IMG/VR virus record: IMGVR_UViG_3300032053_011398
Origin: a virus
Reading direction: 5' to 3' (one strand)
Length of the DNA: 64,000 nucleotides
Below, one piece after another: positions 272 through 20,302 of the stretch. Under the pieces are notes generated by a model. It did no database searches. It was not told the origin of the DNA and was given only the letters and a program-made list of their open reading frames with translations. The translations under genes were made by a program, and so were the position numbers. Numbering within the stretch: position 1 is the first letter of the stretch; each line of letters opens with the position of its first letter.

Positions 272-3200
272 TTATTTGAAATCCTGCAAGGTAGCGATCA
301 GGCCGGGCTTCTTGGCCACGAGGCGGCGGCGCTTGAGCCAGTGCTCCAGATTGTTCAAAGATTCGAGCTGGAGGCCCCAAATGTAGTCAACATCCAGGCT
401 GCGCGGGTAATCTCTGAGCTTGCTGCCAATGCCCTGGCCGCGAGCCGCGCTGACCAGGCCCAAAGCCACGCCCTCGACGCCCTGCTTCTGCTCGTAGCCG
501 GACAAGTCCTCGACCGGCTCCATCTCCTCGTCCGCAATGCCCTTGGCGACCGTGCGCCTGCCCAGGAAGTAGAAGCCGAGCGCCTGGTCGCCCTCCATCG
601 CCGCGACCGACAGGTCCATATCGGCAACCGCCTGGATGTATTGGACCACCCAGGCCGCGTGCTCCGCGAAGACTTCCAGGACGGCCTTCTCGACGCCGGG
701 CCAATTCCGCTCATCTATCTTGACGAGCTGAACTTGCTCAGCACTCTCGTTGACCTTGGCCGGAACCTCGAAGTAGAAGTATTCGCGGGGCTTCCAGATT
801 GTCACAATCTCCTCCGGCGTATAGCTGATCTCGCCCAGCCAGGGATCGTTGACCTGAAAGCGGGTGCCGTCGAAGTCATAAACCACAATCCAGTGCTTGA
901 TGCCTCTGGTGAGCGTCCGCAGGATGATGTAGCTGCCACTGTCCAGGGCGTCGGCCAACGCCTCAGCATCCTTGCCTTCGCCGACCTTGAAGGGCACGCC
1001 TGCCGCCTGGAGGCCCGTGGCCATCTTCTTGTCGTCGGTGCCGGTCACCGGATCGCTGCCCGCTGCCCGAACGATGTCGGCGATCTTCAGCTCGCGTCCG
1101 ATGCCCAGCGCATTCGCAACCATCTTGATGCAAGCGGGGCCGCAGTCATACCCGCACTCCTGGCGCATGTGCTGGACCCGGCCTTCGCCCAGCCCCTCAA
1201 AGTTTACAATCGAAAACATCGACTCGCCCGGTTGATCTTGCCAGTCTCTCGCATCCTCGTGGCTAAGTATTCCAGCCTCCATTACTTGTTGGGCTGCTTC
1301 CCTACTTTTGAACAAAGTTGCTTTCTGCCGGGACTCCACCCACTTCCAATTTTCAGCCCTCCCGCCTTTCCAGCGAGTGATACGCGCGTAATGTGGCCCA
1401 ATAACCCACTGTCCATTAACCTCCTTTGAAATTCGGCATTGAATAGCCCAGCAACCCGGCCCGACGACCTCTTTCCAGCCGGTGTCTTCCTCGTCTTCAA
1501 CCAGAACCTCCTCCACGCCCTCCGAAGAAGGCGTGGTGGTCGTTGCATTGCAGCTCGGCGCATCGCACCGCAGCTCATTTCGGCGCATTTCATCACACCG
1601 AGTCGCGGGGCAAGGCAATTCATCCACGCTACTCTCTTGCTCAGCCTCTTGCAAACCCATTTTTTGAGCGACCTCTTTGATGAGCGTCTGATTATCAAAA
1701 GCCAGCTTAGGCAGGTCGTCGATTGCTAACCATTTCAGCCGTTGAGCGTCATCTCCGGCTACTGCTTTTTGAGTCTCCGGTAACATACACCCAAAAACAA
1801 ATACCGTGGCGTTGCGCTCCTCGTTGGGCATCTTCTTGATGAACGTCAAATCGTCCAGATCGAGCTTGGTCTCCTCCTTCATCTCGCGCTTGGCGGCGAC
1901 CTCGATGCCCTCGCCTTCCTTGGCGTGCCCGCCCGCGATCCCCCACTCACCCTTGGCTGGTTCATACTCGCGCTGGCAAACCAGGCAGGTATAGCCCTTG
2001 CCCTCGCTCTTTTCCCTCCCGCACTGACCACAAGCTTTTTCGTCGCTCTTTTCTCTGAAAACAGCGACGATGGCCACACGGTTGTCGTCGCCTTCATTCT
2101 TGCCTTCGGCCAGGTCTTCACCGTGGACATCCTCGATGCCGGTCATCCGGCTGGCTTCCTCGCGGGTGACGAACTCGCCGCGCAGGGTCAGAAACCCGAT
2201 CTCGACCTGATTCCAGATTTTGTTATAGGCCCGGTTGGATCGAACTCCCAAGTCCTCCAGGTCTTCAAGGCTCTTGATCTTGCCGAAGTAGCCCTGCTGG
2301 AGCAGTGACCCCATCGCCTCGGAATGGGTTGAGCCACTAGCAACTATGCCCCTGCCCTTAATCATGACGGCAGCAGCGACAATGGGCCTCTTTGACGCCT
2401 CTTGCAGAGCGGTTTGGCTAGCACAAACGGTGAACTTGCCGGTTTTTGCATCGTAGCTTGCCCCGCTCTTGTCAACGGCAAGTGCTTCTGCAAGAGCATC
2501 CAAGCTCTGGCCCCTGTGCCATTCACCTTTGATTTCTACAAGTCCCTGTTGCTCAGAATCTTGCACTTTTCGCACGGTGCCGCCCTGTTCCATGATCCGG
2601 CTGATAAGACCCGGTGCTTCTGATTCGATGCGACGGCGCTTTTGAGGCTTGGCAAAAAATTGCCTCGGAATGACAACCACAAAGCCACTCTCGTTATTGG
2701 GTATGGTTTTGAGCCGCGAATAGCTGATACCCATTTTCTCCAACCGGTCCTTGGCGGCATACATGTCCGCAGTCGTCCAGCCCGGCCAGCTACAAACAAA
2801 CCCGTCAAACTTGGACGTATAGCGAAACACCGTCACCGACTGAGCACCCGTAGCAACTAACGCCGCCTCGATGTCTTGCTGGGTGGGCTGCGAATGAACC
2901 ACGTCCTTCCAGGAGTCTTCGTCCCCCGCCGCCTCGCCCAGCAAACCCTGAGCAATGGAGATGTCCAAGGTGCCCGTGGTCGGCTCGTAATGGTAACCGA
3001 TCAAAGCCCTATTGCTACGGAGGCCCAAGTGACACACGATTCGCCGAACCAGTTCAGCGGCATCGGCATCCTTCTGGCTGTAGAGCCAGGTGCCCTGGAA
3101 GTGGGTGTTATGCCAACCCGGCAGGACCAGGACGGAGACGACGCCAAGCTCCCCCATTGCTTGCTCAACCTCTTGCCGAGTTAAATAGCGTTCGGGCATC

Positions 3201-5125
3201 ACGTCTTTCCAGGCACCGCCTTCCTCGGCAGCAATCAAGTCGTCGTCCCCAAGTCCTTCTCGCAGTTCTGCCAAGGCAGCTTGTGCCTTAGCTAATTCCT
3301 GCTTGTAAAGTTCCAGGTTGTGCTGGATGATTTGCCGATAGCTGTTAGACTTGTTTCCTAACTGCTTTTGGTAGAACTCGATCTGGCTCTGATAGTAGGC
3401 TTGGGCTACTTCGGCTGGTTTTAAGCTGATTTCCACTATCCCTACTGCGGGAGTTGGCCGAACAGGCAGTATGTTCTTGAGCAGATTGGCTGGTCCTACA
3501 AATACACCCCTTTCGTCCCGCCTGCGGCGATCAAACCAATTTTTAGGCCGCGCAGCTTCCGGGGGAACACGGCCATCCAGCAGCCCAGTGTTCCCCAGGG
3601 TCCAGGCTAAGAAATTTTGGTTTTCGTCAGCGCGGACAACAACGAGCACCGTTTGAGACTTACGATTTGCATAGTTTACAATCCAAAAGTCTTGCGGTTC
3701 CCAGCTACGCTCAGTTTCGATGTTGGCATCCAGCGCCTCCCCAATTTCCCTACGGCTTTGGATGTCCGGGTCGCCCACGAACCAAGTGATCTCCCAAGCT
3801 CCGGGGTCCGCCTTCCACCGGCTAATATAGTCGATTTCATCGGTGCCCAGGATTTCGTAGAGGCTCGACTTGATCTGGCGGCAGAAGTTCTCCAACTCCG
3901 GGGTCGCGGTGCCGCTGGCCGTCCAGGGCTTTTTGCTGTCGGGGACAATGATGGTGTCCACAATCCGCTGGGGCCTGCCCAGGTCGCCCCAGCCCTTGTC
4001 TGCCGGTTCCTCGAAGACCTTGAAAATCTTCAGCCCAGCCAAGCCGAATAGGTGCCGGATCATGGCCCCCTTCTCGGTCGGGGCCTGCATCTCCTTGCCG
4101 GTGATCTCATCCTCGTCGTCCAGGGCCTCAACCTGTGGGCGCGGGCGTTGTTCGAGGGCAATGATAAGCTGTTCATTCGGATCAGCCTCGATGATGATCG
4201 AGAACCAGGCAGTGCCTTGCTCGGCGTAAAAACCGGCCCTGCGGAGCGCCAAGTCCATCATTGAGTGCATGGAGTGGCCCCCGCCCTCCGCCGCAAAGTA
4301 GGGCATGTGAGCACCGCCATCATGGGTGACGATCAAGCAACTACCTCCCCCATACTCCTCGCCCCTGGCCTTCCATTGCTCTGGGGTATAAAAGACGTGG
4401 CTATGCCCGCCAGAATATAGATCATCCCCTCGGTTGAGCACCCCAATAATAACCGCCCAGGCCCTTTCCGCGCTCGGCGAGGCTCCCTCCGGCAATGCGA
4501 AGTCCGGGGGCACCCCAGGCCCATAGACCTCTTTGGAGTCCATGAAGTCCTCCTCTGTGGCCTCGACCAGCATCAGGTCCAGGTTCCACATGTCGTTCCA
4601 GTGGTCGTGCGCCAGGCGCGTGGGCCTGACCAGGACGCCTTCAGGCACCAGGCCGCGCACTGCCTCGGCCAACTCGCTGCTCAGCGCCTCGCAGCTCTCG
4701 CGGAGCATCTGCTTGCTCTCGCTCTGCGGCAGCGCCAGCTTGGCGGTCAGGAATTGCCCGGCCAGGACATGATTGCCGACGTGCTGGCCGTGGCCCCAGT
4801 CGAACTCGAACAGCAGGCCGTTCTGGTGGAACATTTCGCCTGCCTTCTCGATGAAATCCAGCCCCAGCTTGGCCTTCAGATCGTTGCCTACTACCCCGAC
4901 CACCGGCAGGGACTCCGCCATCTTGACCCATTCCCCGCCCTCCGGCATCTGGAGGTCTTTCATCTCCAAGTGATCGAAGATGTCGGCCTGCGAATAGCTG
5001 ACCCAACCATCCTCATTCGACCAGTAATCCCCAGCGGCATTGCGGACCATGAAACGCGGATAAACCGCCATTTCCTTCAGGTCTCCACACTGACCACAAA
5101 CATCTTGCTCAAAAATCGTGCTCAT
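272..5125 (-). CDS. Multi-module polyprotein-like protein (unknown modules + Nudix hydrolase + C39 peptidase + GNAT); putative internal head protein
   Basis: Nudix box GGHAKEGEGIEVAAKREMKEETKL; C39 motifs QECGYDCGPAC, HWIV and VNDP; C-terminal GNAT-like ARGQGIGSKL; modules separated by LxE sites and acidic linkers. Confidence 0.8.
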   Translation of the reverse strand: MSTIFEQDVCGQCGDLKEMAVYPRFMVRNAAGDYWSNEDGWVSYSQADIFDHLEMKDLQMPEGGEWVKMAESLPVVGVVGNDLKAKLGLDFIEKAGEMFHQNGLLFEFDWGHGQHVGNHVLAGQFLTAKLALPQSESKQMLRESCEALSSELAEAVRGLVPEGVLVRPTRLAHDHWNDMWNLDLMLVEATEEDFMDSKEVYGPGVPPDFALPEGASPSAERAWAVIIGVLNRGDDLYSGGHSHVFYTPEQWKARGEEYGGGSCLIVTHDGGAHMPYFAAEGGGHSMHSMMDLALRRAGFYAEQGTAWFSIIIEADPNEQLIIALEQRPRPQVEALDDEDEITGKEMQAPTEKGAMIRHLFGLAGLKIFKVFEEPADKGWGDLGRPQRIVDTIIVPDSKKPWTASGTATPELENFCRQIKSSLYEILGTDEIDYISRWKADPGAWEITWFVGDPDIQSRREIGEALDANIETERSWEPQDFWIVNYANRKSQTVLVVVRADENQNFLAWTLGNTGLLDGRVPPEAARPKNWFDRRRRDERGVFVGPANLLKNILPVRPTPAVGIVEISLKPAEVAQAYYQSQIEFYQKQLGNKSNSYRQIIQHNLELYKQELAKAQAALAELREGLGDDDLIAAEEGGAWKDVMPERYLTRQEVEQAMGELGVVSVLVLPGWHNTHFQGTWLYSQKDADAAELVRRIVCHLGLRSNRALIGYHYEPTTGTLDISIAQGLLGEAAGDEDSWKDVVHSQPTQQDIEAALVATGAQSVTVFRYTSKFDGFVCSWPGWTTADMYAAKDRLEKMGISYSRLKTIPNNESGFVVVIPRQFFAKPQKRRRIESEAPGLISRIMEQGGTVRKVQDSEQQGLVEIKGEWHRGQSLDALAEALAVDKSGASYDAKTGKFTVCASQTALQEASKRPIVAAAVMIKGRGIVASGSTHSEAMGSLLQQGYFGKIKSLEDLEDLGVRSNRAYNKIWNQVEIGFLTLRGEFVTREEASRMTGIEDVHGEDLAEGKNEGDDNRVAIVAVFREKSDEKACGQCGREKSEGKGYTCLVCQREYEPAKGEWGIAGGHAKEGEGIEVAAKREMKEETKLDLDDLTFIKKMPNEERNATVFVFGCMLPETQKAVAGDDAQRLKWLAIDDLPKLAFDNQTLIKEVAQKMGLQEAEQESSVDELPCPATRCDEMRRNELRCDAPSCNATTTTPSSEGVEEVLVEDEEDTGWKEVVGPGCWAIQCRISKEVNGQWVIGPHYARITRWKGGRAENWKWVESRQKATLFKSREAAQQVMEAGILSHEDARDWQDQPGESMFSIVNFEGLGEGRVQHMRQECGYDCGPACIKMVANALGIGRELKIADIVRAAGSDPVTGTDDKKMATGLQAAGVPFKVGEGKDAEALADALDSGSYIILRTLTRGIKHWIVVYDFDGTRFQVNDPWLGEISYTPEEIVTIWKPREYFYFEVPAKVNESAEQVQLVKIDERNWPGVEKAVLEVFAEHAAWVVQYIQAVADMDLSVAAMEGDQALGFYFLGRRTVAKGIADEEMEPVEDLSGYEQKQGVEGVALGLVSAARGQGIGSKLRDYPRSLDVDYIWGLQLESLNNLEHWLKRRRLVAKKPGLIATLQDFK

Positions 5126-5146
5126 GCCCCAACTTTCTTCACACCA

Positions 5147-5153
5147 TAACTAC
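5147..5153 (-). promoter_or_regulatory. GTAGTTA motif (putative late promoter) upstream of the polyprotein gene
   Basis: The same heptamer precedes the portal, wedge, tube-like and other structural genes. Confidence 0.55.
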
Positions 5154-5268
5154 AGAAGGAAGACCTCACCGGAGCAGGGCCTTTGCTTCGCACACCCTCA
5201 AATCTGCACCACCGCGAAACCACGATGGCCGCATTCTCGTGAAAGGTTCATGAGCGCCCCCAGTCAGG

Positions 5269-5715
5269 TCAAGTGTTTACCGCCGTAAACGGCGGCGTGC
5301 TGTTATAGGCAATCCAGTCACCCGGAGGACGGTATTTGGCCAAGATGTCCGCCACACCCCCACTGGCTGCCAGTCGCAGCGCCATGATCCTGACAGGCGG
5401 GAGCGACTTGAGGTAATCATCCCACCAGTTGAACCAACGCCAGAAGAAGGAAGAGAATTGCCCATAGCGGAGCACGGGCAGCATGATGTCGAACCGAGTT
5501 GTGGACTCAGCCGTAAAGCAAAGCTGGTGGAGCACCGAATTGAACCTGTGGCTGAAGACCTCCTGGCTCATCTTGCCCTGGTGGAGCACAGCATAAGTGG
5601 TCTTCAACTCATTCACCAAACCGAAACAGGCCATGAAGACCGAGACTTCGCAGGCATTATCTGCGAACTCCTGGTCTTTGACTTTGGCCGGTTTCGGTTT
5701 GGCGGTCGTCTTCAT
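5269..5715 (-). CDS. Hypothetical protein
   Basis: ATG start (MKTTAK) chosen downstream of the 35-bp repeats. Confidence 0.65.
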   Translation of the reverse strand: MKTTAKPKPAKVKDQEFADNACEVSVFMACFGLVNELKTTYAVLHQGKMSQEVFSHRFNSVLHQLCFTAESTTRFDIMLPVLRYGQFSSFFWRWFNWWDDYLKSLPPVRIMALRLAASGGVADILAKYRPPGDWIAYNSTPPFTAVNT

Positions 5716-5718
5716 GTA

Positions 5719-5795
5719 ACGAGTTTCCGCACTGACCACAACATTTTCAACTTACGAGCTTCCGCACTGACCACAACTTTTTCAAATTACGAGCT
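5719..5795. repeat. 35-bp imperfect tandem repeat (2.2 copies), each full copy carrying TGTGGTCAGTGCGG on the minus strand
   Basis: ACGAGTTTCCGCACTGACCACAACATTTTCAACTT / ACGAGCTTCCGCACTGACCACAACTTTTTCAAATT / ACGAGCT. Confidence 0.85.
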
Positions 5796-6054
5796 GAATT
5801 TCATCTTCCAAAGCAAAGAACTGAAAAGCTCTGGCGATCACTTCATCCCGGCGCATGTTTACCGCATCAAGGCCGTTCCTGGCTAGTTCGGCGACCATGC
5901 TCACAGTCAGATTGCTATACCGTTTCTGGATGCCACGGCGATTTCTGAGGACGCACGTTCCAGAATCGCGTATCCGACCCCTGAAGAATGGGTCGCTTGC
6001 CAGGACTTGTTCGATCACGTCCATCCGTCCGGGAGCCAGTAAACTGCTGTTCAT
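5782..6054 (-). CDS. Hypothetical protein
   Basis: 90-aa ORF directly downstream of a sigma70-like promoter. Confidence 0.65.
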   Translation of the reverse strand: MNSSLLAPGRMDVIEQVLASDPFFRGRIRDSGTCVLRNRRGIQKRYSNLTVSMVAELARNGLDAVNMRRDEVIARAFQFFALEDEIQLVI

Positions 6055-6062
6055 AACATGTG

Positions 6063-6091
6063 AATATCGTTTACAATTTCTTCTAAGTCAA
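6063..6091 (-). promoter_or_regulatory. Sigma70-like promoter TTGACT-N17-GATATT with a TTGTAAAC motif in the spacer
   Basis: Hexamers and 17-bp spacing read directly; ATG 8 nt after the -10. Confidence 0.6.
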
Positions 6092-6107
6092 GAGGAAACG
6101 GTTTCGT

Positions 6108-7075: not shown

Positions 7076-7106
7076 GGCAAAAATGGGATTGACCGGCCCA
7101 ACCCCG

Positions 7107-7310: not shown

Positions 7311-7352
7311 GATTTTTCTCTTTGAACAATGCGCACCAGCCTCCAGGGCTAA

Positions 7353-7550: not shown

Positions 7551-7574
7551 AGCCAGTTGGCCAGTTAGAACCGT

Positions 7575-8273: not shown

Positions 8274-8300
8274 ATTTCTGTCTTTCGATTATTTAAGCCG

Positions 8301-8501: not shown

Positions 8502-8510
8502 CTGGTCTAA

Positions 8511-8603: not shown

Positions 8604-9815
8604 TCACGTATGCCAGACCTGAACGGTCACGAAACTTTGAATAGAGACGGCGGCAGTGGCATTAAATCGGTCGAAAACCGTAAGCTGACCGCTGATATTT
8701 CGCGGGCCAGCCTGGAGCGCGGCCTGGCTGTAGTAATCGTATTGGTCGGGGCGAATCATGATGGTTTTGCCCCATAACTGAACTCCGGCTGGCTCGGAAA
8801 AGTCCCAGCGATAGTTGAGCAGAAGATGGTTGAGGTCGGTCGCCGTGCCAGTGAAATGGACAGAGCTGGTGCGGACAACTTGATAGACAGCGCCAACCAA
8901 CGGAGCGTCGGTGGTGATGTTCTTGATGACGGGCGTCTGCGAAGCGTTGAGCTGAACGGTCTGCCGGAGCACGAGGCTCTGGCCGGTGGTCAGGTTCGTA
9001 ACCGTGCAGAGCGCCGTCTTCAGGCCCGGATACTCGGTGGACACATTGCGAACGAATTGGCTGCGGTAGGAACCATTGGACAACTGCGCGGGCGTTAGAG
9101 TGGAAGTGCTGTCCGAAGCCCAGCCATTGGTCGTTAGCAGTTCCCACTTGAACTGGAGCTGACCCGGATTCAGGTCAAGCGCATAGACCGTGAACGTGAC
9201 GGTCTGGCTTGGGCCGATGATGACTTCGCCCAGGTTGTTCGTGCTGCTGATGATCGAGTTGCTGCTGGCCGATCCGCCCCCGCTCAACCCGGCTGCGGAC
9301 TCGCCCCGGAGGGAATAGTCCAGCGACGTGACGCCGCCATTAACATCCGTGATCTTTTGCGTTAGCGTCCGGTTGGCCGTGATGGCAGAGGGCGTGTAAG
9401 TGTTCTGGTAGGTGCCCGCCGAGGGAATGATGGTGACGCCCGCGCTCAGGTAGGTCGCTCCCTCATACCAGCCGAACGAGAGCGCCCCGGCAGCCTCCGG
9501 GTCGTAGGCCGTGGCCCGACAGTAGGTGCTAAAGGGAAAGAGCAAATCGTTGTTGAGGATAGTCGGCAGGCCCACGATGACCGGAGGCGCATTCACCGTG
9601 ATCGTGCTCGTAAGCGTGCTATAAGCCCCTTCCGCATTGCAATATTGGCAGGTGAGGGGCAGATTGACCCCACCCTGGTTGAGCCGCTTTTGAATGGTGG
9701 GCACCGCCGTCACTTGGACATCTTGATCCCAAAAATGCCAAACATAAGTCAAGTTGTCGCCGCCCGGAGGAGCAGCGGCAACCGTGAAAGTCTTGATGTC
9801 TCCTGTATTATTCAT
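8604..9815 (-). CDS. PKD/Ig-like repeat virion structural protein
   Basis: Repeated LTYVWHF, LSFGW, LQFKW and LNYRWDFS beta-sandwich motifs; Thr-rich; follows the wedge gene. Confidence 0.7.
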   Translation of the reverse strand: MNNTGDIKTFTVAAAPPGGDNLTYVWHFWDQDVQVTAVPTIQKRLNQGGVNLPLTCQYCNAEGAYSTLTSTITVNAPPVIVGLPTILNNDLLFPFSTYCRATAYDPEAAGALSFGWYEGATYLSAGVTIIPSAGTYQNTYTPSAITANRTLTQKITDVNGGVTSLDYSLRGESAAGLSGGGSASSNSIISSTNNLGEVIIGPSQTVTFTVYALDLNPGQLQFKWELLTTNGWASDSTSTLTPAQLSNGSYRSQFVRNVSTEYPGLKTALCTVTNLTTGQSLVLRQTVQLNASQTPVIKNITTDAPLVGAVYQVVRTSSVHFTGTATDLNHLLLNYRWDFSEPAGVQLWGKTIMIRPDQYDYYSQAALQAGPRNISGQLTVFDRFNATAAVSIQSFVTVQVWHT

Positions 9816-12800
9816 GTAATAACTATTGGCCCGTAGGTGGGCAGCACCGGCGGCGGCGGATCAGAGATCATCGCGGGTGCCCCCATAAGCAAATCCTGAC
9901 GGCGCTCGCCCGTCGTCGCCGTCAGCACGTTCGAGATTGGATACCGCGAAGTATAAGTGTCGTTCGCGCTGTAAATCTTGGACTCATGCGTGTAGCCGTA
10001 GGCCGTGCCCCAGCTTGTCAGCGCCGCCATCCAACCGCCTGGCGTCGCGGGGAAGTCGTTGCTCCCGGTGCTGACCTCGGTCAATTGGCTGCCTGTGGCG
10101 ATAAGCTTCAGCTCGTAGAGCGTCGTGTTGAGCCGGATCAGCCGGAAACCGGAAATGGCGAGCTGGCGGGCGGTGCCCCGCGCCGCATCCCGCAAAGCGT
10201 TATACCAATTGAAGTCCAGCAGCCACGTGTTGTTGTAGCCGAGCGTCCGGCCCGGCAGCACGTGCGGCAGCGTGAAATCGAACGTGTCGATCTGGCTGAA
10301 GTTAGCCCCGATCTTGCCCTGGCAGAGCCGCGCTTCAAACGGGAAATCTCCCACCGTGACGACGACCTTGAACCCGTCGAAGTTCTCATCCACCTGGCCG
10401 ATGTTGCCCGATATGACCTCCAACCGGTAGTTGCCCGGCAACGCTGTCTGGTCAAGCTCAAACGTAATTTGACCGTTGTCGGCCAAAGCCGCCACTCCCT
10501 GGGAGAGGCCGAAGCCGCTCTCGTTGGCCCAGTGCCCATAGGCAACCGCGCCGGACTCGTTGACGACGACTTCCTCGTTGCCATACATGTAAATCCAGGG
10601 TGAATAAAGCGTGCCGGAGTAGGCAGCGGCATAGACCTGGCCCGCCGCGTTCACGCGGAGCTGCGTGTGGTAGCCGCAGTTGGTGAGCGCGACCTCCGCG
10701 CCCGTGGGCTGGTCCGCGTAACGCAGCTTGGCCGGATGCAGGATTTTAGCGGACCCCGGCGTGCGGAGTTGAACGTCGTAAGTGCCCGCCGAAGGCAAAA
10801 CACTGCCGCCCAGAATGGCTCCGCTGGAGGTGATGGCCCATGCGCCGTCGTCGGTCGTGGTGTCGGTGCCATAAACGACCACGAGTTGGCCGGGAAAGAC
10901 GGTGCCATAGGACGTAACGCCCACGCAATGGGTTCCGCCCAAGCCTGCCGAAGCGACAACTTGCAGCAGGGGCGAATAAGTGCCCTCCGTGCCCGCAAGC
11001 ACCAGCTCCGCATCCGTCCGTAGGGTGAAAATCCTCTCTGCGGCTAAGCCGAAAGCGTTGATTCCGCTGCGGATGACCTTGACTTCATAAACGTAGCTGT
11101 CGTCGCCCCTGACCCAAATGCGGTCGCGGCAGGCATTAGTTGCCTGGAGCGGGTTGGGCCAAGGGCGGAGGATGCCGGTGTCGATGTAGGTCGGCGGGAT
11201 GCCATAGATCGTGCTGCCTGATTGAAGCAGTTGCAGCGCGAGCGGCGTCGGGCAATCAAAGAGCCATGCGGTATTGACGCCGCCGTATCCGCTTCCCCAA
11301 GTCGAAACGACCACTGTGCCTGCGGCAGTCAGGGTGTCCCACTGGAGGCCCAAGAATTGCTTAGCTGGCAGGTTGACGCCGGAACCGATGCCTGTCTCCT
11401 TGAAGCGGGATTGGGCTTGATACTGGCCGGTCGCGTCGTAGCGCGAGACCCAAGCTTCCGAAGGCGTTTTGATGGATGACGGCAGCAGGTCAGGCGAGAT
11501 GTAGCCGCTGTCCAGCACCCGGACGCCATAACGGTCGTAATCGTTGACGCTCGTTAAGAAGGCCGGGCGGTAGAGGCACGCCGTAGGCGTCGGGTTGTGG
11601 TAGCGAACCAGTTCCAGCTCCTCCATTGTTTTGGCGGAGTTCCAGACGCGGAGGTCGTGGACGTAAAAACCTCCAGCACAGCCGGTGACCGAGATGGGGG
11701 CCGTGTCGCTCCAGGTCTGGCCATTCCAGGTCTGCGAGTCCACGAGCACGGCGGGAGTGTCCATCCGGCCTTGGTAAAACTTCCAGTAGCCGGTGCCGTC
11801 GGCTGGATCGTAAGTGAAGGCGCAGAAAGTCCAGCCCGGATTGAGAACAGCCCCGGCCAAGATCGGGTGCAAAGCCCCGGTGTTATCCGTTCCATCCACG
11901 CTGATCGCGCTGCCCATGAGCAACTTTATCGAACCGATGCCCAAGATTTCTGTGCCCGGAGCCGAACCTTCGGGGCGCATGATCCAGAAGCTCACTGTGA
12001 CCGGCCCGGCCAAGTTGCGCGTGCGGTCGGTGGAACCGAGCGAAAGCCCCACGTTTGCGTGCAGGTGCCAGCCGCGCCACGGGTCATATTCGCGGCTCAA
12101 AGGGACCACGTTCCGGTGCAGCAGGCTGTCCCCGATAACCGAGTGGTCGGCGGTCACGGTCGAATTATAGGGGTGCTCGTTGAAGGGGAACCAAGCGACC
12201 AGGTTATCACGATGATGCTTTCCAAAGAACTTGACGGGATCAGCGACCAGGACGCCTTGAACCAGACCGAAGTGGTAGAGCCTCCAGCCGGGGTTAAACG
12301 CCCAGTCCATGTCATCGACGCAGTGGTCAACACCCAAGTCTTCGACCCAAACACCATCAAGGGTCTCCTGGGACAGCGTGCGCCGGGGCAATTCTTCCCG
12401 CTGGCGCGGATTAAGCGTGGCCAGATCGCAGAAAGTTCCCGTATAACCAATGGCCATTTGGCCCGGCTCATAGGGGGTCAAAGATCGAACCTCAACCTGG
12501 AAGTTGGGAGGATGCGGCCCATGCGCGGCCAAACTGACATCGTATTGCGCCCCGGTCTGGCTGAAGACCGCGATGCTTTGGCCAACTTGCGTGACCGTCA
12601 CATCCGGCGTCGGCGGATTGTAAGTCGCCCGGTCAATCAGTTCGCCGCCATTCACCAGGTCGCGCCGCCAGGGATACTCGTCGGCCAAGTCCATCATCGG
12701 CTCGTCCAGCTCATCTTCCGGCCTCTCCTGATAGCCGCGCACGCATTCGGGCTTGGTCAAGCTCCAGTCGTCGATGGTCGCGCCGTAAATCGTCTCCACG

Positions 12801-15800
12801 TGAGCTTGCAATCGGGTGGGCGTAGCAACCAGCAGCATGGCCCCGGAATCCGTCGTTGCCGTGACCGGATAGGTCGCGCTTGTCGCATACTCCACAATGG
12901 CATCAGGATCGTGATAGTCCGTGCCTGCCGTGCTAAACACAGCCGGACCAGGAGGTCCGTCCAAGCCGATGATGATGCGCGTAAGCCCACCCGAAAGCGA
13001 CCGAGCATAGGCATGAACATGACCGCTCATGGTCAGGTCAGCGCCCCAGCCTTTCCAGGGCCAATCCGTGCGCGGATACTGCCCGGCCCCGTGACCGCTG
13101 TTCCACGCATCGGACTCCCAATCTGGATGGTGATACATCACGATCTTCCAGGGCGCTTGAGACCGTTTTAACCAGTCCTTGATGAGCGCGGCCTGGATGC
13201 TGTTCATCCGGTCGATCCGAACCCGCCCCGTGACAATCGCCGCCGTGTGGTCAAGCACCATGTCGGCCTGGATCACATCGCCGCCATAATAACGCTTGCC
13301 CTGGTAATCGACGTAATTGCTGCCAGGATTGGCGATGACGCGGTATTTTCGAGCCTGGCGCAGCACGACCCAGACCGGAGCGGGGTCAAGGCAAGGCTCG
13401 CCGTAGGCCAGAGCATACGTCGGCCCGGCCAAGTCGGCGACGAACGTCATCAGATTGGTGTAGGTGCCGCCCTGGTAAACCACGTAATTGGGGCGGAGCC
13501 GGTCGCCTTTTTCCCCGTAAGAGATTTCGGTGTGAACAGTGTAGGTTACCCCCGCTTCGACCAGGATCGGATTGGCGGACGCCGGTGCCTTGGCACCCGC
13601 GCCAATCGGAGAAAACGGGGCCTCGCACCAGTTTCCGTCCGGTTCAGGCGGCTTGCGGTTGTTGCCGGTGAAGCCGGGGTCGCCAGCGTTGTTATAGCCG
13701 TCGTTGACCACGAACAGCTCCACATGCCCGATGCGAACGTGGTAATAGCGGCCATTGCCCGGCAGGTAATCGAGGTAATTGTTCTCGATTGACAAATCCC
13801 AGTTGTTATTGAACTCGGCCCTGCGGCGAACCCAAGCGCCGCCTGTAGTCGTGAAGGTCGTGACGCCATTGATGCCGGTGAAGGTGTCGCCGTTATGGTA
13901 GATAACACCATTGTAAGTCACCGTATCCCCGCCTGTCAACGGCCAGACACGGTAAGTCTGACCCCAACCCTTGATGTCGCCGCTCGAAACCGGTTCAAAA
14001 TAAACCGGCGAATCAGGATTGTAGAAATCATGATTGCCGGGGCACCGAAAAAACTTGCCCGCGTTGATGAAATCCTGGGCGTTGATGAAGTCTCGGAAGA
14101 CGTGGCCCGGCCAGCCATACACCTGGCTGGCGTCGCCACAATGGAAGAAGGCATCCACGTTCCAGCCCCGGACCAGATTGTTGGCAGCCGCCTGCTCCGG
14201 GCTGTAGATCGAATCGCTCGTCACGCCGATATAGGTTGGGTCGCTCCAGATGGCGGGTTGCTCGCGCACGATCTCGGTCGAGGTCGGCTGGTAGTGGGCA
14301 TAGACCTTGATGTCCGAACCCGCCCCGACTCCAGCGGGGAAGTTGAACATCCACGACGAGTTGCTGTGGTCGTAGGTGCCGGTGACACTGAGGTCGGCGC
14401 TGCCGATCCTCATGTAGTCCGAGTTGTAAGGATCGCGCTCCTGGGTCAGCGCGGAGACCGCGTCGCCGCTTTGCACGCTGAAGGTGACCGCGTAAGGCGG
14501 GTAGGGATAGCCGGACAGCGTGCCACTGTAGGTCGCTATGCCCGCAACTGCCGCAAAGACCGTCCCGAAAGAGCAGTAGTCCGCATAGCCCACCTGATCG
14601 CGCATCAGGTAGCCCATATTGACGTTGCGAGGCTGGCGCGTCGCGGGGCGCACTTCCTCCATCGCCTGAATGACCTGGAGGCCCGCCGCCGTGACCTCGG
14701 CGTGGTTGAGCTGCCGGTCGCCCAGGTCGGCCTGGGTGCGGTAGCTGACGGCGGTTTGCGAAGCCAGAGGATCGGTTTCGGTCAACCAGTCATGCAGGAC
14801 GGTCGCCTGCGCGAACGACCCGTTCTTCCAGGGCCGGTAAGGCGAACTGGCCTGCGAACCGAAATTGGCGCTGGTGCCGCTGGCCTGAAGGTCTTTGTTG
14901 GGGTCGGCGACGCTGACCCCAAACCGCGTCTCGGCCCGGTCAAAGTCTATGGCCAGGCTGAGATCGAAATAAGAGCTGCGATACTTAATGGCCGACAACT
15001 GCTCGTTCACCGAGATCAAACGATGCGTCCCCTGGTTCCAAGACTGAACATGAACGGCCAAGCCATTGAAACTGGAACCTGCCGCGACGGCCTCGAACTT
15101 CATCCCCGTGCCGGACGGGTTGACGAAGGCTTTGGTCTCCGGCCCGCCGCCCGTCAAGATGTAGGGCGAGAGCGCCGGGTCAAGGTCAATCGGGTTGGTG
15201 CCGATGATTCCGACCTTGAAGAAGGGGTTGAAACCATTGATGACCTGCGTGTAAAACTCGGTGCTGTTGGTGCCGAACCGGGCCGTGGCCGTGCCCGACC
15301 AGGCGTAGTAGGGGCCGTCCGTCAAGTTCCACGGATCGTAAAAATTGTCGCGCACCTGCTTCGGGTAGAAGTCAGGCACTTCCGAGAAGTCCGGGTCGTT
15401 GGCCGGATCGCCCACATCATTGGGCACGCGGGGGCTGAGACGCTGCCACAACGGGGTCATCCGCACGTCGTCGAAGCCCAGAAGACGACCCAGTGTCTCG
15501 AAGGACTCCGCCGTGCCCTTGAATTGAAGACGGGGAAACCAGGTCTGAAGCAGGCGGCGAGAGTCCGAGTTCTCGTTGACCGGATCGAGAGCCGCCGACC
15601 GATAAAGCACCGCGCCCACTGTCGCGGCCAGGTAGGGCAGCACGTTGGCGTCCACCAGCCGGAGCATGTCCACGCCATAGGCCGCGCTGAGCAGGACGTG
15701 TTCTTCATCGAGCTGAAGTTGAGCCGCAACCCAAGTAATGAGGTCGGCGCTGCCGCTCGCGGGGGTGTCATCCTTGATCTCCAAGGAGCGATTGTAAACT

Positions 15801-16042
15801 TTTCCTTTCGGAGACTGAATCCGGGCGATGACGGCATTAGGGGCGGCTCCAACGGCGTCGGACTCCGGCAATCCCTGGCCGGTGACCAACAGCTCGAACT
15901 TCGACATGTAGGCGCGGAGGTCGTCAACGCGGTCATTATACCCGCCAACAACTGCGCTAATCAGCCCTTGCTCATCAAGCGAGATTATCCCTTCCGGCAG
16001 AAGGTTATACAGCTTGTCCTCGCTGAGGTTTTGCAGACTCAT
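9812..16042 (-). CDS. Giant baseplate wedge-like protein with an inserted metallophosphoesterase and a LamG-like domain
   Basis: N-terminal LPYLAATVG...KGTAESFETLGRLLG (P2 gpI/T4 gp7-like); TSD, CGD, PGNHD, YHHP and GHVH calcineurin-like motifs; VSFWI, CAFTYD and DLRVWN LamG motifs. Confidence 0.75.
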   Translation of the reverse strand: MSLQNLSEDKLYNLLPEGIISLDEQGLISAVVGGYNDRVDDLRAYMSKFELLVTGQGLPESDAVGAAPNAVIARIQSPKGKVYNRSLEIKDDTPASGSADLITWVAAQLQLDEEHVLLSAAYGVDMLRLVDANVLPYLAATVGAVLYRSAALDPVNENSDSRRLLQTWFPRLQFKGTAESFETLGRLLGFDDVRMTPLWQRLSPRVPNDVGDPANDPDFSEVPDFYPKQVRDNFYDPWNLTDGPYYAWSGTATARFGTNSTEFYTQVINGFNPFFKVGIIGTNPIDLDPALSPYILTGGGPETKAFVNPSGTGMKFEAVAAGSSFNGLAVHVQSWNQGTHRLISVNEQLSAIKYRSSYFDLSLAIDFDRAETRFGVSVADPNKDLQASGTSANFGSQASSPYRPWKNGSFAQATVLHDWLTETDPLASQTAVSYRTQADLGDRQLNHAEVTAAGLQVIQAMEEVRPATRQPRNVNMGYLMRDQVGYADYCSFGTVFAAVAGIATYSGTLSGYPYPPYAVTFSVQSGDAVSALTQERDPYNSDYMRIGSADLSVTGTYDHSNSSWMFNFPAGVGAGSDIKVYAHYQPTSTEIVREQPAIWSDPTYIGVTSDSIYSPEQAAANNLVRGWNVDAFFHCGDASQVYGWPGHVFRDFINAQDFINAGKFFRCPGNHDFYNPDSPVYFEPVSSGDIKGWGQTYRVWPLTGGDTVTYNGVIYHNGDTFTGINGVTTFTTTGGAWVRRRAEFNNNWDLSIENNYLDYLPGNGRYYHVRIGHVELFVVNDGYNNAGDPGFTGNNRKPPEPDGNWCEAPFSPIGAGAKAPASANPILVEAGVTYTVHTEISYGEKGDRLRPNYVVYQGGTYTNLMTFVADLAGPTYALAYGEPCLDPAPVWVVLRQARKYRVIANPGSNYVDYQGKRYYGGDVIQADMVLDHTAAIVTGRVRIDRMNSIQAALIKDWLKRSQAPWKIVMYHHPDWESDAWNSGHGAGQYPRTDWPWKGWGADLTMSGHVHAYARSLSGGLTRIIIGLDGPPGPAVFSTAGTDYHDPDAIVEYATSATYPVTATTDSGAMLLVATPTRLQAHVETIYGATIDDWSLTKPECVRGYQERPEDELDEPMMDLADEYPWRRDLVNGGELIDRATYNPPTPDVTVTQVGQSIAVFSQTGAQYDVSLAAHGPHPPNFQVEVRSLTPYEPGQMAIGYTGTFCDLATLNPRQREELPRRTLSQETLDGVWVEDLGVDHCVDDMDWAFNPGWRLYHFGLVQGVLVADPVKFFGKHHRDNLVAWFPFNEHPYNSTVTADHSVIGDSLLHRNVVPLSREYDPWRGWHLHANVGLSLGSTDRTRNLAGPVTVSFWIMRPEGSAPGTEILGIGSIKLLMGSAISVDGTDNTGALHPILAGAVLNPGWTFCAFTYDPADGTGYWKFYQGRMDTPAVLVDSQTWNGQTWSDTAPISVTGCAGGFYVHDLRVWNSAKTMEELELVRYHNPTPTACLYRPAFLTSVNDYDRYGVRVLDSGYISPDLLPSSIKTPSEAWVSRYDATGQYQAQSRFKETGIGSGVNLPAKQFLGLQWDTLTAAGTVVVSTWGSGYGGVNTAWLFDCPTPLALQLLQSGSTIYGIPPTYIDTGILRPWPNPLQATNACRDRIWVRGDDSYVYEVKVIRSGINAFGLAAERIFTLRTDAELVLAGTEGTYSPLLQVVASAGLGGTHCVGVTSYGTVFPGQLVVVYGTDTTTDDGAWAITSSGAILGGSVLPSAGTYDVQLRTPGSAKILHPAKLRYADQPTGAEVALTNCGYHTQLRVNAAGQVYAAAYSGTLYSPWIYMYGNEEVVVNESGAVAYGHWANESGFGLSQGVAALADNGQITFELDQTALPGNYRLEVISGNIGQVDENFDGFKVVVTVGDFPFEARLCQGKIGANFSQIDTFDFTLPHVLPGRTLGYNNTWLLDFNWYNALRDAARGTARQLAISGFRLIRLNTTLYELKLIATGSQLTEVSTGSNDFPATPGGWMAALTSWGTAYGYTHESKIYSANDTYTSRYPISNVLTATTGERRQDLLMGAPAMISDPPPPVLPTYGPIVIT

Positions 16043-16590
16043 GCCGCTCTAACTACGGAGGGAGATTCGCTTTGGTGAGGGCACACACCGCGCAGCCCGT
16101 AAGCCATATTACAGTTCGCGCACAATGTTCGGTATCCAGGCGGGAAACCCTCTCGCCTGAGCTTGAACAACAGCTTCAAGCTGGTTAAACCGCCCTGTCT
16201 CTCTTTGCCGCCGCCTCCGCTGGCATGATCGAGGCACAAAAACTCATAGTGAGCTTCGCCACAGCAAATGCAAGCCAGCACACCATTCCCGTAGGCGGTC
16301 AAAACCTTCTTTCGTAACTCTGTCTGATACAGCTTGTTGGGTCCACGGGCACCCGCTGAAACACACTTCTTACACCGAGCAATAAGACCAAAAGTATTTT
16401 TCTTGCTTCGGTTCGATCCGAAAAATTTAGCCGTGTAGGGCTTTGTTTCGCCACATTTGGTGCATTTCTTAGATAACGGCTTAATCTTCATGCGGCGTCG
16501 CCCACCGGCGCACCGAATCGAACAGTATTTTAGCTGAGCACTGCCTGGGTCTAGCGGGCTACCACAGTTGAGACAATTCTGATATGCCAT
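16039..16590 (-). CDS. HNH endonuclease (free-standing)
   Basis: CICCGE...LCLDH...GYRTLCANCN; N-terminal zinc fingers. Confidence 0.8.
   Translation of the reverse strand: MAYQNCLNCGSPLDPGSAQLKYCSIRCAGGRRRMKIKPLSKKCTKCGETKPYTAKFFGSNRSKKNTFGLIARCKKCVSAGARGPNKLYQTELRKKVLTAYGNGVLACICCGEAHYEFLCLDHASGGGGKERQGGLTSLKLLFKLRREGFPPGYRTLCANCNMAYGLRGVCPHQSESPSVVRAA
16050..16056 (-). promoter_or_regulatory. GTAGTTA motif 7 nt upstream of the wedge gene ATG
   Basis: Recurrent motif; lies inside the 3' end of the HNH gene. Confidence 0.6.
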
Positions 16591-16641
16591 GCCTCAATAC
16601 TGGTATATATTCGGCTCGCACTCAAGCCAATTCCACCTTAT

Positions 16642-18588
16642 TCATTCGATTAGATTTGGTTTACCTAAAAAAAGGCGCAGCTTATCCCCCGTTCCGGCTT
16701 TAGAAAACAAAACTGATTTGACGAGAAACCTAAGATCAGCAGGAGTTGGCTCAGCCAACAGCCGTTTACCCACTAATTCCCGGCACGTTCCTTTGGTAAT
16801 GTAGCAGACAGTTAAGTGGGGGCGAAATTCTGGATGTTCATCGGAATTTGGTAGCTGGCTAAGGCGTGCGTTCAACTGGCGCAAAACGTCGCTTTCCACG
16901 TCAAACTTGAGCACATCGTAATCCGGTGAAGATTCAAACAAAGAGCAACCCATTACCTCGATCTCAAAAGGCTGCGTTTCTTCCAGAATTTTAAGAAGTT
17001 GAGGTCCAGGTTCCGTCTCACAAAGACCATACTTGCAAGTGACGTGCGGGTCCGTCTCGCGGCCAAAACCCGGCTCGTCACCAGTGTAAATCTCATCATC
17101 CATCACATACATCTGGCCCCACTTGATGAGAGCATCGGCCAGATTATCCGGGGCTTCGGCCAGCAGGCAGGAATACTCGCGGCTCTCGCACAAGCTCTCC
17201 AGCTCCAGGCGAAACTGGTTCTGGTCTTGCTCCGGGAACATCCATTGGCGCACCATGTGTTCGCTCGTGGTGCCAACCACTTTATCTAAATGGAGCGATT
17301 GGTCCCCGCCCGTGTCTTCGTCCCACTCCTCCCCCGCCAGGTCGCGGGCATTGTCGAACAGGGCGAAAAACTTGCCGTCATCCTCGAAGTCCAGCAGCGC
17401 ACTCTCCAGGTTGGGGAACTTGACGGCAAGGGCCTGTCGATAGTCGCGCTTGATCCAGCCGGTCCAAGCCTCCCAACGCTTCTCTTCCTCCAATTCGCTA
17501 TGGCCTTCCTCGTCGAGCAGGGGATAATTTTCCAGGCTCAGATAATCGGCCTGGAGATTGATAAACTCGTCCGGCGGGATGCTGGCCAAGTCCTCCTCGT
17601 CGATACCGACCTCCTCGCCGTTGTATCCCAACTTGTGGATGGCAAGCCAGGGATACTTCCGCTTGAAATAAGCGGCGTTGGCCTTCTCCACCAGGCTGCC
17701 GCTGTAATCGGAGTGGGCAACCAGGGTGTAAAACCCATTTTGCTCGCTAAGGTTTTCCATGAGCCAGGCCAGCATCACTTCGGGGTTGGCGATCTTGGAT
17801 GAGCGCATCACGTCGGAGAGCATGTCCTCCTCCTCGTCATCGTCCAGCGCAGCCTCGAACATGTCCAATTGCTCCTCCTTGGGCCGGTCGCCCAGGGAGA
17901 GCTTGAGCTGGTTCTTGGCGGAATACATGGCATCGTGGAGCTTGGGCCAGGTTACCGCATCGGCCACATGGTCAACACTGATCGAAGGTTTATGCGACGT
18001 GTCCGTGTCCCAAAATTCTTCGGCTTTGGATGCCATCCGATTGAAAAACTGGAGTCCGCGTGGTCCGAAGATAAAATTCTCGATTTCGGCCCGTGGGTTC
18101 GTGGCCTTGAACTCCCCGCCGAACCTCTCCAGCATCGACTCCGCAAACTCCTTGGCATAGGTATCCTTCCAGGTTCTCTCGATGGCCTGCTGGGCGACCT
18201 CGCTCATGGTGTCATCATCGAGCGCATGACCGTGGATCGCTCGTTTGACATAACCCCGGAATGGATTCCACAGGGGCATCCAATCCAGCTTCTCCGGCTC
18301 CAGGAACAGCCGGTAGCTCAACTCGCTGCCATCCTGCTCCAGCCAGGGGAAAGTGCGGAGCATGAATACGTGGTTGGCGTGCTCGACCGTGCCCGGAAAC
18401 ATCATGCTGTAATCGGTGCCAGGTATCTCCCACATTTTTCGATCTTCGTCCCAATAGAGATTTTGACGCGCCCAATCCTCGCGGGACTCATATTCCCCAC
18501 TGCCTGCCAGCTCCTTCACGTCCAGCTCCGGCTCGTCATCCTCCAGGGCCTCGCCGATGTGCGGAATCAAATCAATCTCGTCACTCAT
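16642..18588 (-). CDS. Acidic multi-module protein with a C-terminal 2H phosphoesterase (Acb1/T4 gp57B-like)
   Basis: Two HxT motifs (DPHVTCKYG, RPHLTVCY); start set at the ATGA overlap with the upstream gene; acidic linker tags. Confidence 0.75.
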   Translation of the reverse strand: MSDEIDLIPHIGEALEDDEPELDVKELAGSGEYESREDWARQNLYWDEDRKMWEIPGTDYSMMFPGTVEHANHVFMLRTFPWLEQDGSELSYRLFLEPEKLDWMPLWNPFRGYVKRAIHGHALDDDTMSEVAQQAIERTWKDTYAKEFAESMLERFGGEFKATNPRAEIENFIFGPRGLQFFNRMASKAEEFWDTDTSHKPSISVDHVADAVTWPKLHDAMYSAKNQLKLSLGDRPKEEQLDMFEAALDDDEEEDMLSDVMRSSKIANPEVMLAWLMENLSEQNGFYTLVAHSDYSGSLVEKANAAYFKRKYPWLAIHKLGYNGEEVGIDEEDLASIPPDEFINLQADYLSLENYPLLDEEGHSELEEEKRWEAWTGWIKRDYRQALAVKFPNLESALLDFEDDGKFFALFDNARDLAGEEWDEDTGGDQSLHLDKVVGTTSEHMVRQWMFPEQDQNQFRLELESLCESREYSCLLAEAPDNLADALIKWGQMYVMDDEIYTGDEPGFGRETDPHVTCKYGLCETEPGPQLLKILEETQPFEIEVMGCSLFESSPDYDVLKFDVESDVLRQLNARLSQLPNSDEHPEFRPHLTVCYITKGTCRELVGKRLLAEPTPADLRFLVKSVLFSKAGTGDKLRLFLGKPNLIE

Positions 18589-19010
18589 GGCCATTTGGTT
18601 CCTGGTGATTCGTTCACTACGATGGTCTGAACGTCGTTGGCCCAGTAGGGTGGGCGGTTGTTGGTGCCCCAAATCTCGATGTATTTCTGGCGCAGCGTGC
18701 CGATGTCATTCGTCCCGATGTAAATATAAACGCTGAAGCTGTCCGGCCCGCCTACGTCCACCGAGAACCGGCCCCATGGAAACTGATTCATCAGGCGTTC
18801 GACCGTGTTGAGGTCGGCCACGCCTTGGCCCGCGTAAACAGAGCAATCCCCCTGGCCCAGCTCGCGGTCGATGGGGGCCTGCCGCAGTTCCGCGTTGATG
18901 AGCCAACTGCCCCGCGTGGCCAGATAAACGATCTGCTCGTAGCTGAGCATGGGCTGGTGCTGGGCATTGATCTGCCAGACGTTGTTGTAGATGCAGATTT
19001 TGGGGATCAT
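18585..19010 (-). CDS. Hypothetical protein
   Basis: 141-aa ORF translationally coupled between two polyprotein-like genes. Confidence 0.7.
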   Translation of the reverse strand: MIPKICIYNNVWQINAQHQPMLSYEQIVYLATRGSWLINAELRQAPIDRELGQGDCSVYAGQGVADLNTVERLMNQFPWGRFSVDVGGPDSFSVYIYIGTNDIGTLRQKYIEIWGTNNRPPYWANDVQTIVVNESPGTKWP

Positions 19011-19013
19011 TTA

Positions 19014-20054
19014 TTATGCCTGTTGAAGCCAATCCCATAGGTCGGACGTATCCGGGTTAAATGGCTGCTGCGCGTCTTTGGCTCTTATCCGTGGCTCCAG
19101 ATGCCTTAACACCGATTGATTTCGGATGTGAAACCGCCCGCCCCCAGCGTAGCGGTGGTTGTAGTAGATCGAGAGCATACAGCCTTCGGACTGCTTCTCG
19201 TAGCGGAACTCCCAGGGATCGTGGCTGAGATAGCCGCCCAGCAACTCCTTGGTGCTCTCCTCCTCGTCCTCATGGATGCCGTAACGGTCGGCGATCTGCT
19301 CGCGCATAGGGCGGAAGTCCCCAGCCTTAATCATGGCCTTGGCGTCAGCCAGGCCGTTGGCGCTGCCATGGTAGTGCATGAGGCCCTGCGGTGTATCCTC
19401 AGTCTTCACGAACTCGTAGATGACGTATTGCGTCCAAGTTCTCCAGGTGCCCATCTGCCCGAAGCTTCCAGGAACCCACCTGGCGTTCTTGAGCACCAAA
19501 AAGTTCCCATATTTGTAAACCTTCTCCGTCCCAAACCACCTGTTGTTCTGGCGGCTGAAGAAGCCCGGTTCGGCTGCCTTCATGTCCACCAAGCTGGCAG
19601 CACCCTCCCCACCAACTACTTCCTTAACATCAAAATCATCCTCCTCGGCCTCCTGAAGAGCTGCGTTGCGGTAGCCTACCGTGCCGGATGGGGTTCCGTT
19701 AACGATCAAGGGTGCGCCAAACAGGTTCCTCCAGCTCCTCAAGGCCCACTTTAGCGTTCCAAAACTAGCGAAACGCCCCTTCCAGCACCAGTGGTTGACG
19801 AAATCCACACGGATTCCGCCATGTCCCTTATCAAGCTCTTGAATCAGAACTCTTTGCACAGGCATCTGCGATACATATTCCCGGATACCCCTTAGATTCC
19901 GGCTTTTCCTGACTGCCCGCCCGCTCTCATCGTAGAGGTAATGGACTTCCGTGTAGGTCTCCGGCCATGACGTATCCGGGAAGGTGTGGGCTGCGTCTTT
20001 CCAGTCCAGGTCGTCTTCCGCCTCAAGCAAGTGCTTGATGATTTCGTCGGTCAC
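19014..20054 (-). CDS. Three-module protein with acidic linker tags; putative internal head protein
   Basis: Likely GTG start (VTDEIIKHLLE) 5 nt after GTAATTA; tags LEAEDDLDWKDA, QEAEEDDFDVKEVV and HEDEEESTKELL. Confidence 0.7.
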   Translation of the reverse strand: MTDEIIKHLLEAEDDLDWKDAAHTFPDTSWPETYTEVHYLYDESGRAVRKSRNLRGIREYVSQMPVQRVLIQELDKGHGGIRVDFVNHWCWKGRFASFGTLKWALRSWRNLFGAPLIVNGTPSGTVGYRNAALQEAEEDDFDVKEVVGGEGAASLVDMKAAEPGFFSRQNNRWFGTEKVYKYGNFLVLKNARWVPGSFGQMGTWRTWTQYVIYEFVKTEDTPQGLMHYHGSANGLADAKAMIKAGDFRPMREQIADRYGIHEDEEESTKELLGGYLSHDPWEFRYEKQSEGCMLSIYYNHRYAGGGRFHIRNQSVLRHLEPRIRAKDAQQPFNPDTSDLWDWLQQA

Positions 20055-20297: not shown

Positions 20298-20302
20298 AAA
20301 AA

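Follow-up and report, generated by a model that had tools for sequence, protein, structure and literature searches.

What holds together phage genes that read as chains of unrelated protein modules, and what is the purpose of a short acidic peptide that recurs at their joints? The question is raised by a 64,000-nucleotide stretch of viral DNA (IMG/VR record IMGVR_UViG_3300032053_011398; the window, in the following), in which an initial annotation had described three genes as strings of unrelated modules with an acidic tag at ten or more of their junctions. The open reading frames (ORFs) exist, their modules behave independently of each other, and all ten listed tags were found where they had been placed. 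The genes encode P0001 (272–5125), a polyprotein of 1617 amino acids and about 12 modules, P0002 (16642–18594; 650 amino acids from its Met) and P0003 (19014–20054; 346 amino acids from a GTG start, three modules). All three are on the minus strand, as are the tags, modules and promoter words located in them or before them below. The tag is a genuine, selected signal that marks the starts of modules. Regarding its function, we assign a probability of roughly 55% to a reading in which the three proteins are late head-cargo polyproteins that would be cut by an S77 prohead protease, docked on the scaffold and injected with the DNA.

The source of the window is an uncultured, T4-like giant phage. 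It is a myophage with a T4-type portal gene (31237–33150, PF07230), tail sheath and baseplate genes, a helicase and a primase, and its portal protein is listed under an ENA contig of 242,565 bp (ERZ27247916). Five relatives from IMG/VR, all fetched complete, were available for comparison. G001 is a 110-kb, 62%-complete fragment with a portal 92% identical to that of the window; G002 (238 kb, 96% complete) is syntenic with the window and has a portal 84% identical; in G003 (102 kb) this value is 82%. G004 (203 kb, 60%) is more distant, and in G005 (172 kb) portal identity is 55%. All genome-wide tests were run on these relatives.

The tag is composed of two halves. The first is hydrophobic-x-Glu with a following Ala or Ser, the second an acidic run that leads into hydrophobic-x-hydrophobic-Lys-(Asp/Glu)-hydrophobic-hydrophobic; in the overall consensus, the Glu is followed by Ala, Ser or an acidic residue and then by three to six acidic residues. 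A loose regular expression found the tag in P0001, P0002 and P0003 only among the 65 ORFs of the window, plus one weak match. The initial annotation had suggested a motif scan across the whole proteome. Run as a profile hidden Markov model over the 635 ORFs of the window and G001–G003, it returned 47 matches of at least 9 bits in 20 ORFs, compared with none in each of 20 shuffles that kept local composition, which places the tag far above chance. Among overlapping frames that had been rejected (500,000 residues), there were two matches, each in what resembles a real gene. A profile built from G002 alone recovered exactly P0001, P0002 and P0003 in the window. In the same set of genomes, the profile found the tag on no replication or tail protein.

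Tags occur in two contexts, either at about residues 5–30 of stand-alone proteins or at internal module joints. N-terminal copies are preceded by a short amphipathic helix, forming a leader of 10–15 residues that ends in L-L-E. Plain amphipathic leaders of the xxLLE type are only 1.5–2-fold enriched at N-termini, and we did not count them as evidence. The DNA pattern for E-D-D-F-D-x-K-D was found at nine places across IMG/VR, three of them in G001 and G002 and one in a further contig; the remaining five resemble chance matches, two of these loci (L090 and L094) being ambiguous. The exact tag hence appears confined to a narrow clade. The further contig (L095, IMGVR_UViG_3300035550_000027) is an unrelated-looking viral contig of 21 kb, in which the acidic tag occurs three times within a 770-amino-acid frame; the tag family thus extends past the contigs found via the portal.

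In P0001, the listed tags are joined by an N-terminal and a decayed copy. The N-terminal tag (5060–5125), in which MSTIFE-QD supplies I-F-E and D-L-K-E-M-A follows, is kept in four orthologues, and conserved N-termini in the orthologues speak for the ATG at 5125 as the start. The public gene call for this protein has 1599 amino acids and starts at Met19, 18 residues later, whereby the N-terminal tag is dropped (window 5072–5125). Tag 1 (4517–4576; LMLVE/ATEEDFMDSKEVYG, the slash marking the proposed cut) covers residues 187–202, with E188 and K198 invariant in five orthologues. It is followed by tag 2 (4088–4138; PQVE/ALDDEDEITGKEM) and by the decayed copy (3716–3748; EIGE/ALDANIE), which is a full tag in orthologues and precedes a module that is different in every one of them. 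Tag 3 (3197–3238; LIAAE/EGGAWKDVM) has the invariant K640, tag 4 (2894–2944; LLGE/AAGDEDSWKDVVH) the invariant E731, K740 and D741, and tag 5 (1460–1507; VLVE/DEEDTGWKEVVG) is the last. Across residues 460–745 of P0001, the only invariant columns in the five orthologues are these four tag residues and G718, the one exception.

P0002 starts with a leader and tag (18502–18594; ..LIPHIGE/ALEDDEPELDVKELAG) and has one internal tag (17803–17859; FE/AALDDDEEEDMLSDVM), the equivalent of which is the N-terminal leader of an 862-amino-acid protein in G003. P0003 likewise begins with a leader and tag (19989–20054; TDEIIKHLLE/AEDDLDWKDAA). Its tag 2 (19611–19667; NAALQE/AEEDDFDVKEVVG) and the module behind it remain together in most of the 35 library representatives with readable upstream sequence, and at its tag 3 (19236–19280; GIHE/DEEESTKELLG) homologues have an extra module inserted.

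Comparison of module order in related phages, which the initial annotation had also proposed, showed that the order differs exactly at the tags. In the five P0001 orthologues the tags stay in place and the intervening modules change, while in P0003 homologues whole modules are inserted, dropped or replaced precisely at tags. Module 2 of P0003 stands alone in G003 with a leader of its own. A search of 1.84 billion representative proteins with this module gave 35 members; its start motif could be located in 22 of them, and in about 20 of these 22 the module is immediately preceded by an acidic stretch resembling the tag, be it N-terminal or placed behind differing upstream modules. The copies of the tag have no more than 12 identical bases in common, so that selection acts on the peptide and not on the DNA. 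The tag had initially been called a module-swapping linker. Modules do swap at tags, but a linker for recombination at the DNA level was rejected because of these few shared bases. A search of IMG/VR for close relatives of P0001 yielded none that were useful, and one for shorter homologues gave a single match.

Gene borders at tags were also seen in relatives. In G004, a gene for 727 amino acids (88920–91803) ends with A-L-L-E-D-A-D-E directly before a stand-alone 2H phosphoesterase gene, and another polyprotein ends with Y-V-E-D-E-E; these C-termini stop within an apparent tag, as would be expected if genes had recently split at joints. In G002, five adjoining small genes (150478–154757, L078–L082) have one or two tags each and resemble an unfused polyprotein.

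Which enzyme could act on the tag? PF03420, the Peptidase_S77 family of T4 gp21, scored above cut-off in four of the five relatives (G002–G005). In G002–G004 the S77 domain forms one protein with a coiled-coil scaffold that has many hydrophobic-x-Glu sites, and its gene adjoins that of the major capsid protein; the tagged genes lie outside this head-gene block. S77 enzymes cleave after Glu, in T4 at L/I-x-E (PMC9026906) and in SPN3US at A-x-E (PMC10052503). The acidic tag is absent from G004. Here, a tag of the form M-S-R-A-R-x-I-L-E-A-E-(T/S)-P-R-x-hydrophobic-hydrophobic-K opens no fewer than eight small genes, and the motif E-A-x-(S/T)-P-R is also found inside polyproteins; the tag loci of this contig (L045–L055) lie at about 120–151 kb and 175–177 kb. 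The first half (I-L-E-A) is thus common to both lineages and the second half differs, being basic in G004. The net charge of the scaffold arm is +13 in G002 and +4 in G003, which have acidic tags, and −19 in G004 with its basic tag. This charge complementarity is a hint that the second tag half may dock cargo on the scaffold arm.

Promoter words bear on the timing of expression. The P0001 gene and the 20054–16642 operon had been said to follow a GTA(G/A)TTA motif, and such words are present upstream of both: the late-type promoter word GTAGTTA (5147–5153) is located 22 nt before the P0001 ATG (5125), and GTAATTA (20060–20066) 5 nt before the P0003 GTG (20054). GTAGWTA occurs 16 times against 3.05 expected. 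A late-type word before both transcription units is consistent with late synthesis of the proteins, as far as promoter sequence can indicate it.

We therefore propose the following scheme. The polyproteins would be synthesized late, and their unit would be a composite tag with a module of about 100–190 residues, encoded as a single gene or within a chain. The first tag half would be the cut site of a T4 gp21-type prohead protease of the Peptidase S77 family. With the second half, each tagged unit may dock in the prohead core on the basic arm of the scaffold to which the protease is fused; since it is located after the scissile bond, this half would stay on the module that it precedes. Docking might both deliver the substrate to the enzyme and hold the released modules in the prohead. 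Cutting behind the tag Glu would then leave small acidic enzymes inside the head, from where they would pass into the host together with the DNA. The putative cargo includes a NUDIX hydrolase, a 2H phosphoesterase, a GNAT-like enzyme, a C39-like peptidase and many modules of unassigned function. Its action could precede all phage gene expression and plausibly be aimed at defences based on nucleotide signals. NUDIX, 2H and GNAT-like enzymes could destroy defence signals.

The observation behind this scheme is real and highly non-random. We consider the interpretation plausible and in agreement with several independent comparative tests; packaging, cleavage, docking, ejection and host targets are what we infer from the sequences. 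It is partly supported by the fit of the first tag half to the Glu-specific rule of S77 enzymes, together with the presence of the protease in four of the five relatives. More tentatively, one may picture the tag as a portable two-part address, in which a Glu cut site is combined with a docking peptide that is specific to the lineage and complementary in charge to the protease–scaffold arm; we regard this as possible, though less likely than not.

The closest analogy is the capsid targeting sequence (CTS) of T4, a 10-residue leader with I-A-E at its end that gp21 cuts off (PMC9026906). In both systems, a short N-terminal leader ending in hydrophobic-x-Glu is found on unrelated proteins, which in T4 are IPI–III and Alt (PMC9026906, PMC3012670). 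All three window proteins have such a leader (MSTIFE, ..LIPHIGE and TDEIIKHLLE), and so do stand-alone homologues. Also shared is a Glu-specific S77 protease in the lineage. Late expression, as in T4, may apply here given the promoter word, and in either system the cargo is believed to act just after infection, in the new host cell. The window signal differs from the T4 CTS in that it recurs at each joint of the multi-module chains and has a second conserved half that would stay on the cargo. The cargo in T4 consists of small basic proteins, the putative cargo here of acidic enzymes with no homology to T4 internal proteins or Alt; accordingly, Pfam and PHROG searches of the window proteins gave no match of the IPI–III or Alt type.

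Several points speak against head-cargo polyproteins. The conserved second half is located after the proposed cut, where the T4 CTS has no counterpart, and the modules, with isoelectric points of 4.2–6.2, are unlike the basic internal proteins of T4. The full tag was not seen on capsid, scaffold or portal proteins of the relatives. Hydrophobic-x-Glu is common, with 39 such sites in P0001. The exact promoter word precedes just one of the ten tagged genes of G002. The covariation of tag and scaffold charge is based on only two tag types, and the nearest cultured phages are distant, with 23–26% portal identity for the best matches in the phage collection. The structural models, on the whole, count in favour: the tags had been expected between folded domains, and all but one of the modelled tags agree with this. 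In the AlphaFold model of P0003, with a mean predicted local distance difference test (pLDDT) score of 62, all three tags lie between three folded blocks, in segments that score under 50. In that of P0001 residues 1–745 (mean pLDDT 56), four of five tags are in such segments, tag 2 among them, but in tag 1 the L-V-E closes a strand at pLDDT 64–79 and is thus not part of a low-confidence linker. Since low-confidence residues make up 27–40% of both models, this test is a weak one. Also in favour, no tag falls within a Pfam match, and the NUDIX and C39 matches fit between joints.

The acidic run and the K-D/E, the most conserved part of the tag, would not be needed for a Glu-specific cut. This could mean that the chains are uncleaved polyvalent proteins that act intact, with the tag as a short linear docking motif and interdomain linker for partner binding or for loading of whole chains into the virion. 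Polyvalent proteins can indeed transfer at full length (PMC5512222), and one tag is, as described, partly modelled as structured. On the other hand, the Glu is invariant at internal joints too, and it also closes the leaders of stand-alone units, in which there is nothing to link; moreover, the frequent fission and fusion at tags suggests that the units work separately. We hence consider uncleaved chains unlikely, if worth keeping in mind. It is also conceivable that the tag addresses proteins, processed or not, to a place other than the capsid, for instance the envelope, a secretion route or another compartment made by the phage. The position of the tagged genes outside the head-gene block would fit, as would the similar acidic leader on the window protein at 54384–55157. 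The modules, however, are soluble enzymes of cytoplasmic type that act on nucleotides, the leader resembles the T4 CTS in form, tag and scaffold arm are of complementary charge in two lineages, and a late-type promoter word is present, all of which makes such a destination distinctly improbable.

Two further explanations appear very unlikely. A different protease might cut the tags, either a host enzyme or the C39-like peptidase of P0001, which would then recognize the tag end as a leader of the double-glycine type. The C39 catalytic motifs are apparently intact and some tags end with G-G or G-x; yet PF03412 (C39) is missing from all five relatives, although G001–G003 bear the tag, and among the P0001 orthologues the module is found here and in only one other (P0014). 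Gly is not conserved either, as G-G ends two of the ten window tags and about three of 21 in G002. We therefore rejected C39 as the tag protease and take it to be cargo and not a processing enzyme. Hardly more credible is the notion that gene fusions turned N-terminal leaders into internal tags that persist as neutral relics, with no present function at the joints. Every internal tag does precede a module that is also known as a stand-alone unit with a leader, and one P0001 copy has decayed. Against this, internal tags keep Glu and Lys across orthologues of 38–52% identity in which the nearby linker is not conserved, and G004 keeps its own, different tag at internal joints.

The proposed head-cargo polyproteins resemble the polyvalent proteins described by Iyer, Burroughs, Anand, de Souza and Aravind in 2017 (PMC5512222), large phage proteins with several unrelated enzymatic domains, including 2H and domains of NUDIX/GNAT type, for which packaging, injection and processing into separate units were predicted. 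There, 2H is listed as specific to polyvalent proteins of the phage type, and NUDIX and GNAT are named as linked domains (PMC5512222). In their domain architecture, the window proteins correspond to this type, P0001 with NUDIX, C39 and GNAT-like modules and P0002 with 2H and two further modules. In contrast to polyvalent proteins, they have no MPTase or other constant embedded processing peptidase (no Pfam MPTase match). The repetition of the tag at every joint and on single-module genes rather points to processing in trans by a head protease. We found no description of a repeated tag in PMC5512222, and full-text literature searches gave no repeated cut-and-dock tag at joints of phage polyproteins.

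DarB of the P1 Dar system (PMC9024508) is comparable to our proposal as a very large anti-defence enzyme with an N-terminal capsid signal of less than 30 residues and delivery to the host. It differs in that one signal is on one protein with no repeated internal tags described, and P1 is of an unrelated lineage. In the maturation of SPN3US and PhiKZ ejection proteins (PMC10052503, PMC5694885), many head and ejection proteins are cleaved after x-Glu by a protease of S77 type, in some cases more than once per protein, as would be the case here. These cuts remove long propeptides at an A-x-E motif that has no acidic docking half, whereas cuts in the window proteins would free different enzymes.

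If the proposal is true, it would extend the single-leader CTS of T4 to a cassette system, in which many enzymes are loaded as few precursors and freed by the head protease. Under the more tentative picture of a portable address, any tagged protein would be recruited to the protease–scaffold, released as a separate unit, kept in the head and injected, and the enzyme arsenal could be reshuffled as cassettes. A sequence rule of this kind might predict the injected proteome of uncultured giant phages, i.e., their first line of counter-defence, which is otherwise invisible in metagenomes, and it would flag dozens of unassigned modules as candidate early-acting effectors. The match between docking half and scaffold charge would offer a testable handle on how cargo is chosen for the head. 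The tag could also serve to load foreign proteins into phage capsids, a use to which T4 and P1 signals have already been put.

The modules themselves are assigned in part. Next to about nine modules with no assigned function, P0001 contains a NUDIX hydrolase module (1685–1999; residues 1043–1147) with a near-complete Nudix box, a Peptidase C39-like module (791–1177; residues 1317–1445) and a C-terminal GNAT-like acetyltransferase module (275–745; residues 1461–1617), the latter a lead based on an R-G-Q-G-I-G motif with no Pfam match. The C39 assignment (PF03412) has 31.4 bits against a cut-off of 22, and the Gln, Cys, His and Asp motifs are present, visible as Q-x4-D-C-G, H-W-I-V-V and N-D-P. 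In a PDB sequence search with P0001, only the NUDIX and C39 modules were matched, and similarity between its modules 5 and 6 was not detectable in pairwise comparison. P0002 consists of two modules of unassigned function, probably related to each other although only weakly alike, and a module of the 2H (2′-5′ RNA ligase superfamily) phosphoesterases (16717–17052) with both H-x-T motifs. Its C-terminus ends in L-I-E, and the G003 homologue extends beyond this point. A PDB sequence search with P0002 found nothing, and an atlas search with its first module gave sub-threshold matches only. Foldseek searches of the PDB with the P0003 and P0001 models, both of low confidence, returned no match at E ≤ 0.001. 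In the phage collection, matches of P0001–P0003 were limited to the NUDIX and 2H domains.

The initial annotation had also listed joints that are marked by a Glu but have no acidic tag, namely LQE/A, LAE/G, LGE/G, VNE/S and LCE/S. As bare hydrophobic-x-Glu is too common, these joints carry no weight on their own; some nevertheless coincide with borders. LCE/S, LAE/G and VNE/S are at, or within about 15 residues of, borders of genes or homology blocks in relatives. In P0002, LCE/S (Glu at 17182–17184) corresponds to the start of a separate G004 gene of 235 amino acids, in which the 2H module has its own leader ending in L-L-E. In P0001, the NUDIX module is flanked by LAE/G (2105–2107) and LQE/A (1646–1648), the C39-like module by LGE/G (1184–1186) and VNE/S (746–748), the latter two bracketing the Pfam match.

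Some features were seen elsewhere in the window and its relatives. The 257-amino-acid protein encoded at 54384–55157 has half a tag at its start, an amphipathic helix that ends in L-L-E and is followed by D-D-T-E-V-A-E, with no K-D/E; similar half tags are found in G002 at 20009 and 198925. A protein of 2076 amino acids (9812–16042) has a calcineurin-like phosphoesterase domain and its own GTAGTTA word, and no tag. In G001, a gene in a similar place (57810–64265, L072) encodes a giant protein with three tagged modules inserted at residues 1364–1567. Between the giant gene of the window and P0002, a gene similar to HNH endonucleases is located (16039–16590, phrog_2255); its absence from the syntenic G002 points to a mobile insertion. 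The longest frame of P0002 reaches 18672. That of P0003 reaches 20312 and crosses an array of four perfect 21-bp tandem repeats (20215–20312; caccgccaaattcacacccct) between a gene for 254 amino acids (20303–21067) and the P0003 start, so that the ORF call is inflated to 432 amino acids; the GTG start of P0003 is supported by its homologues.

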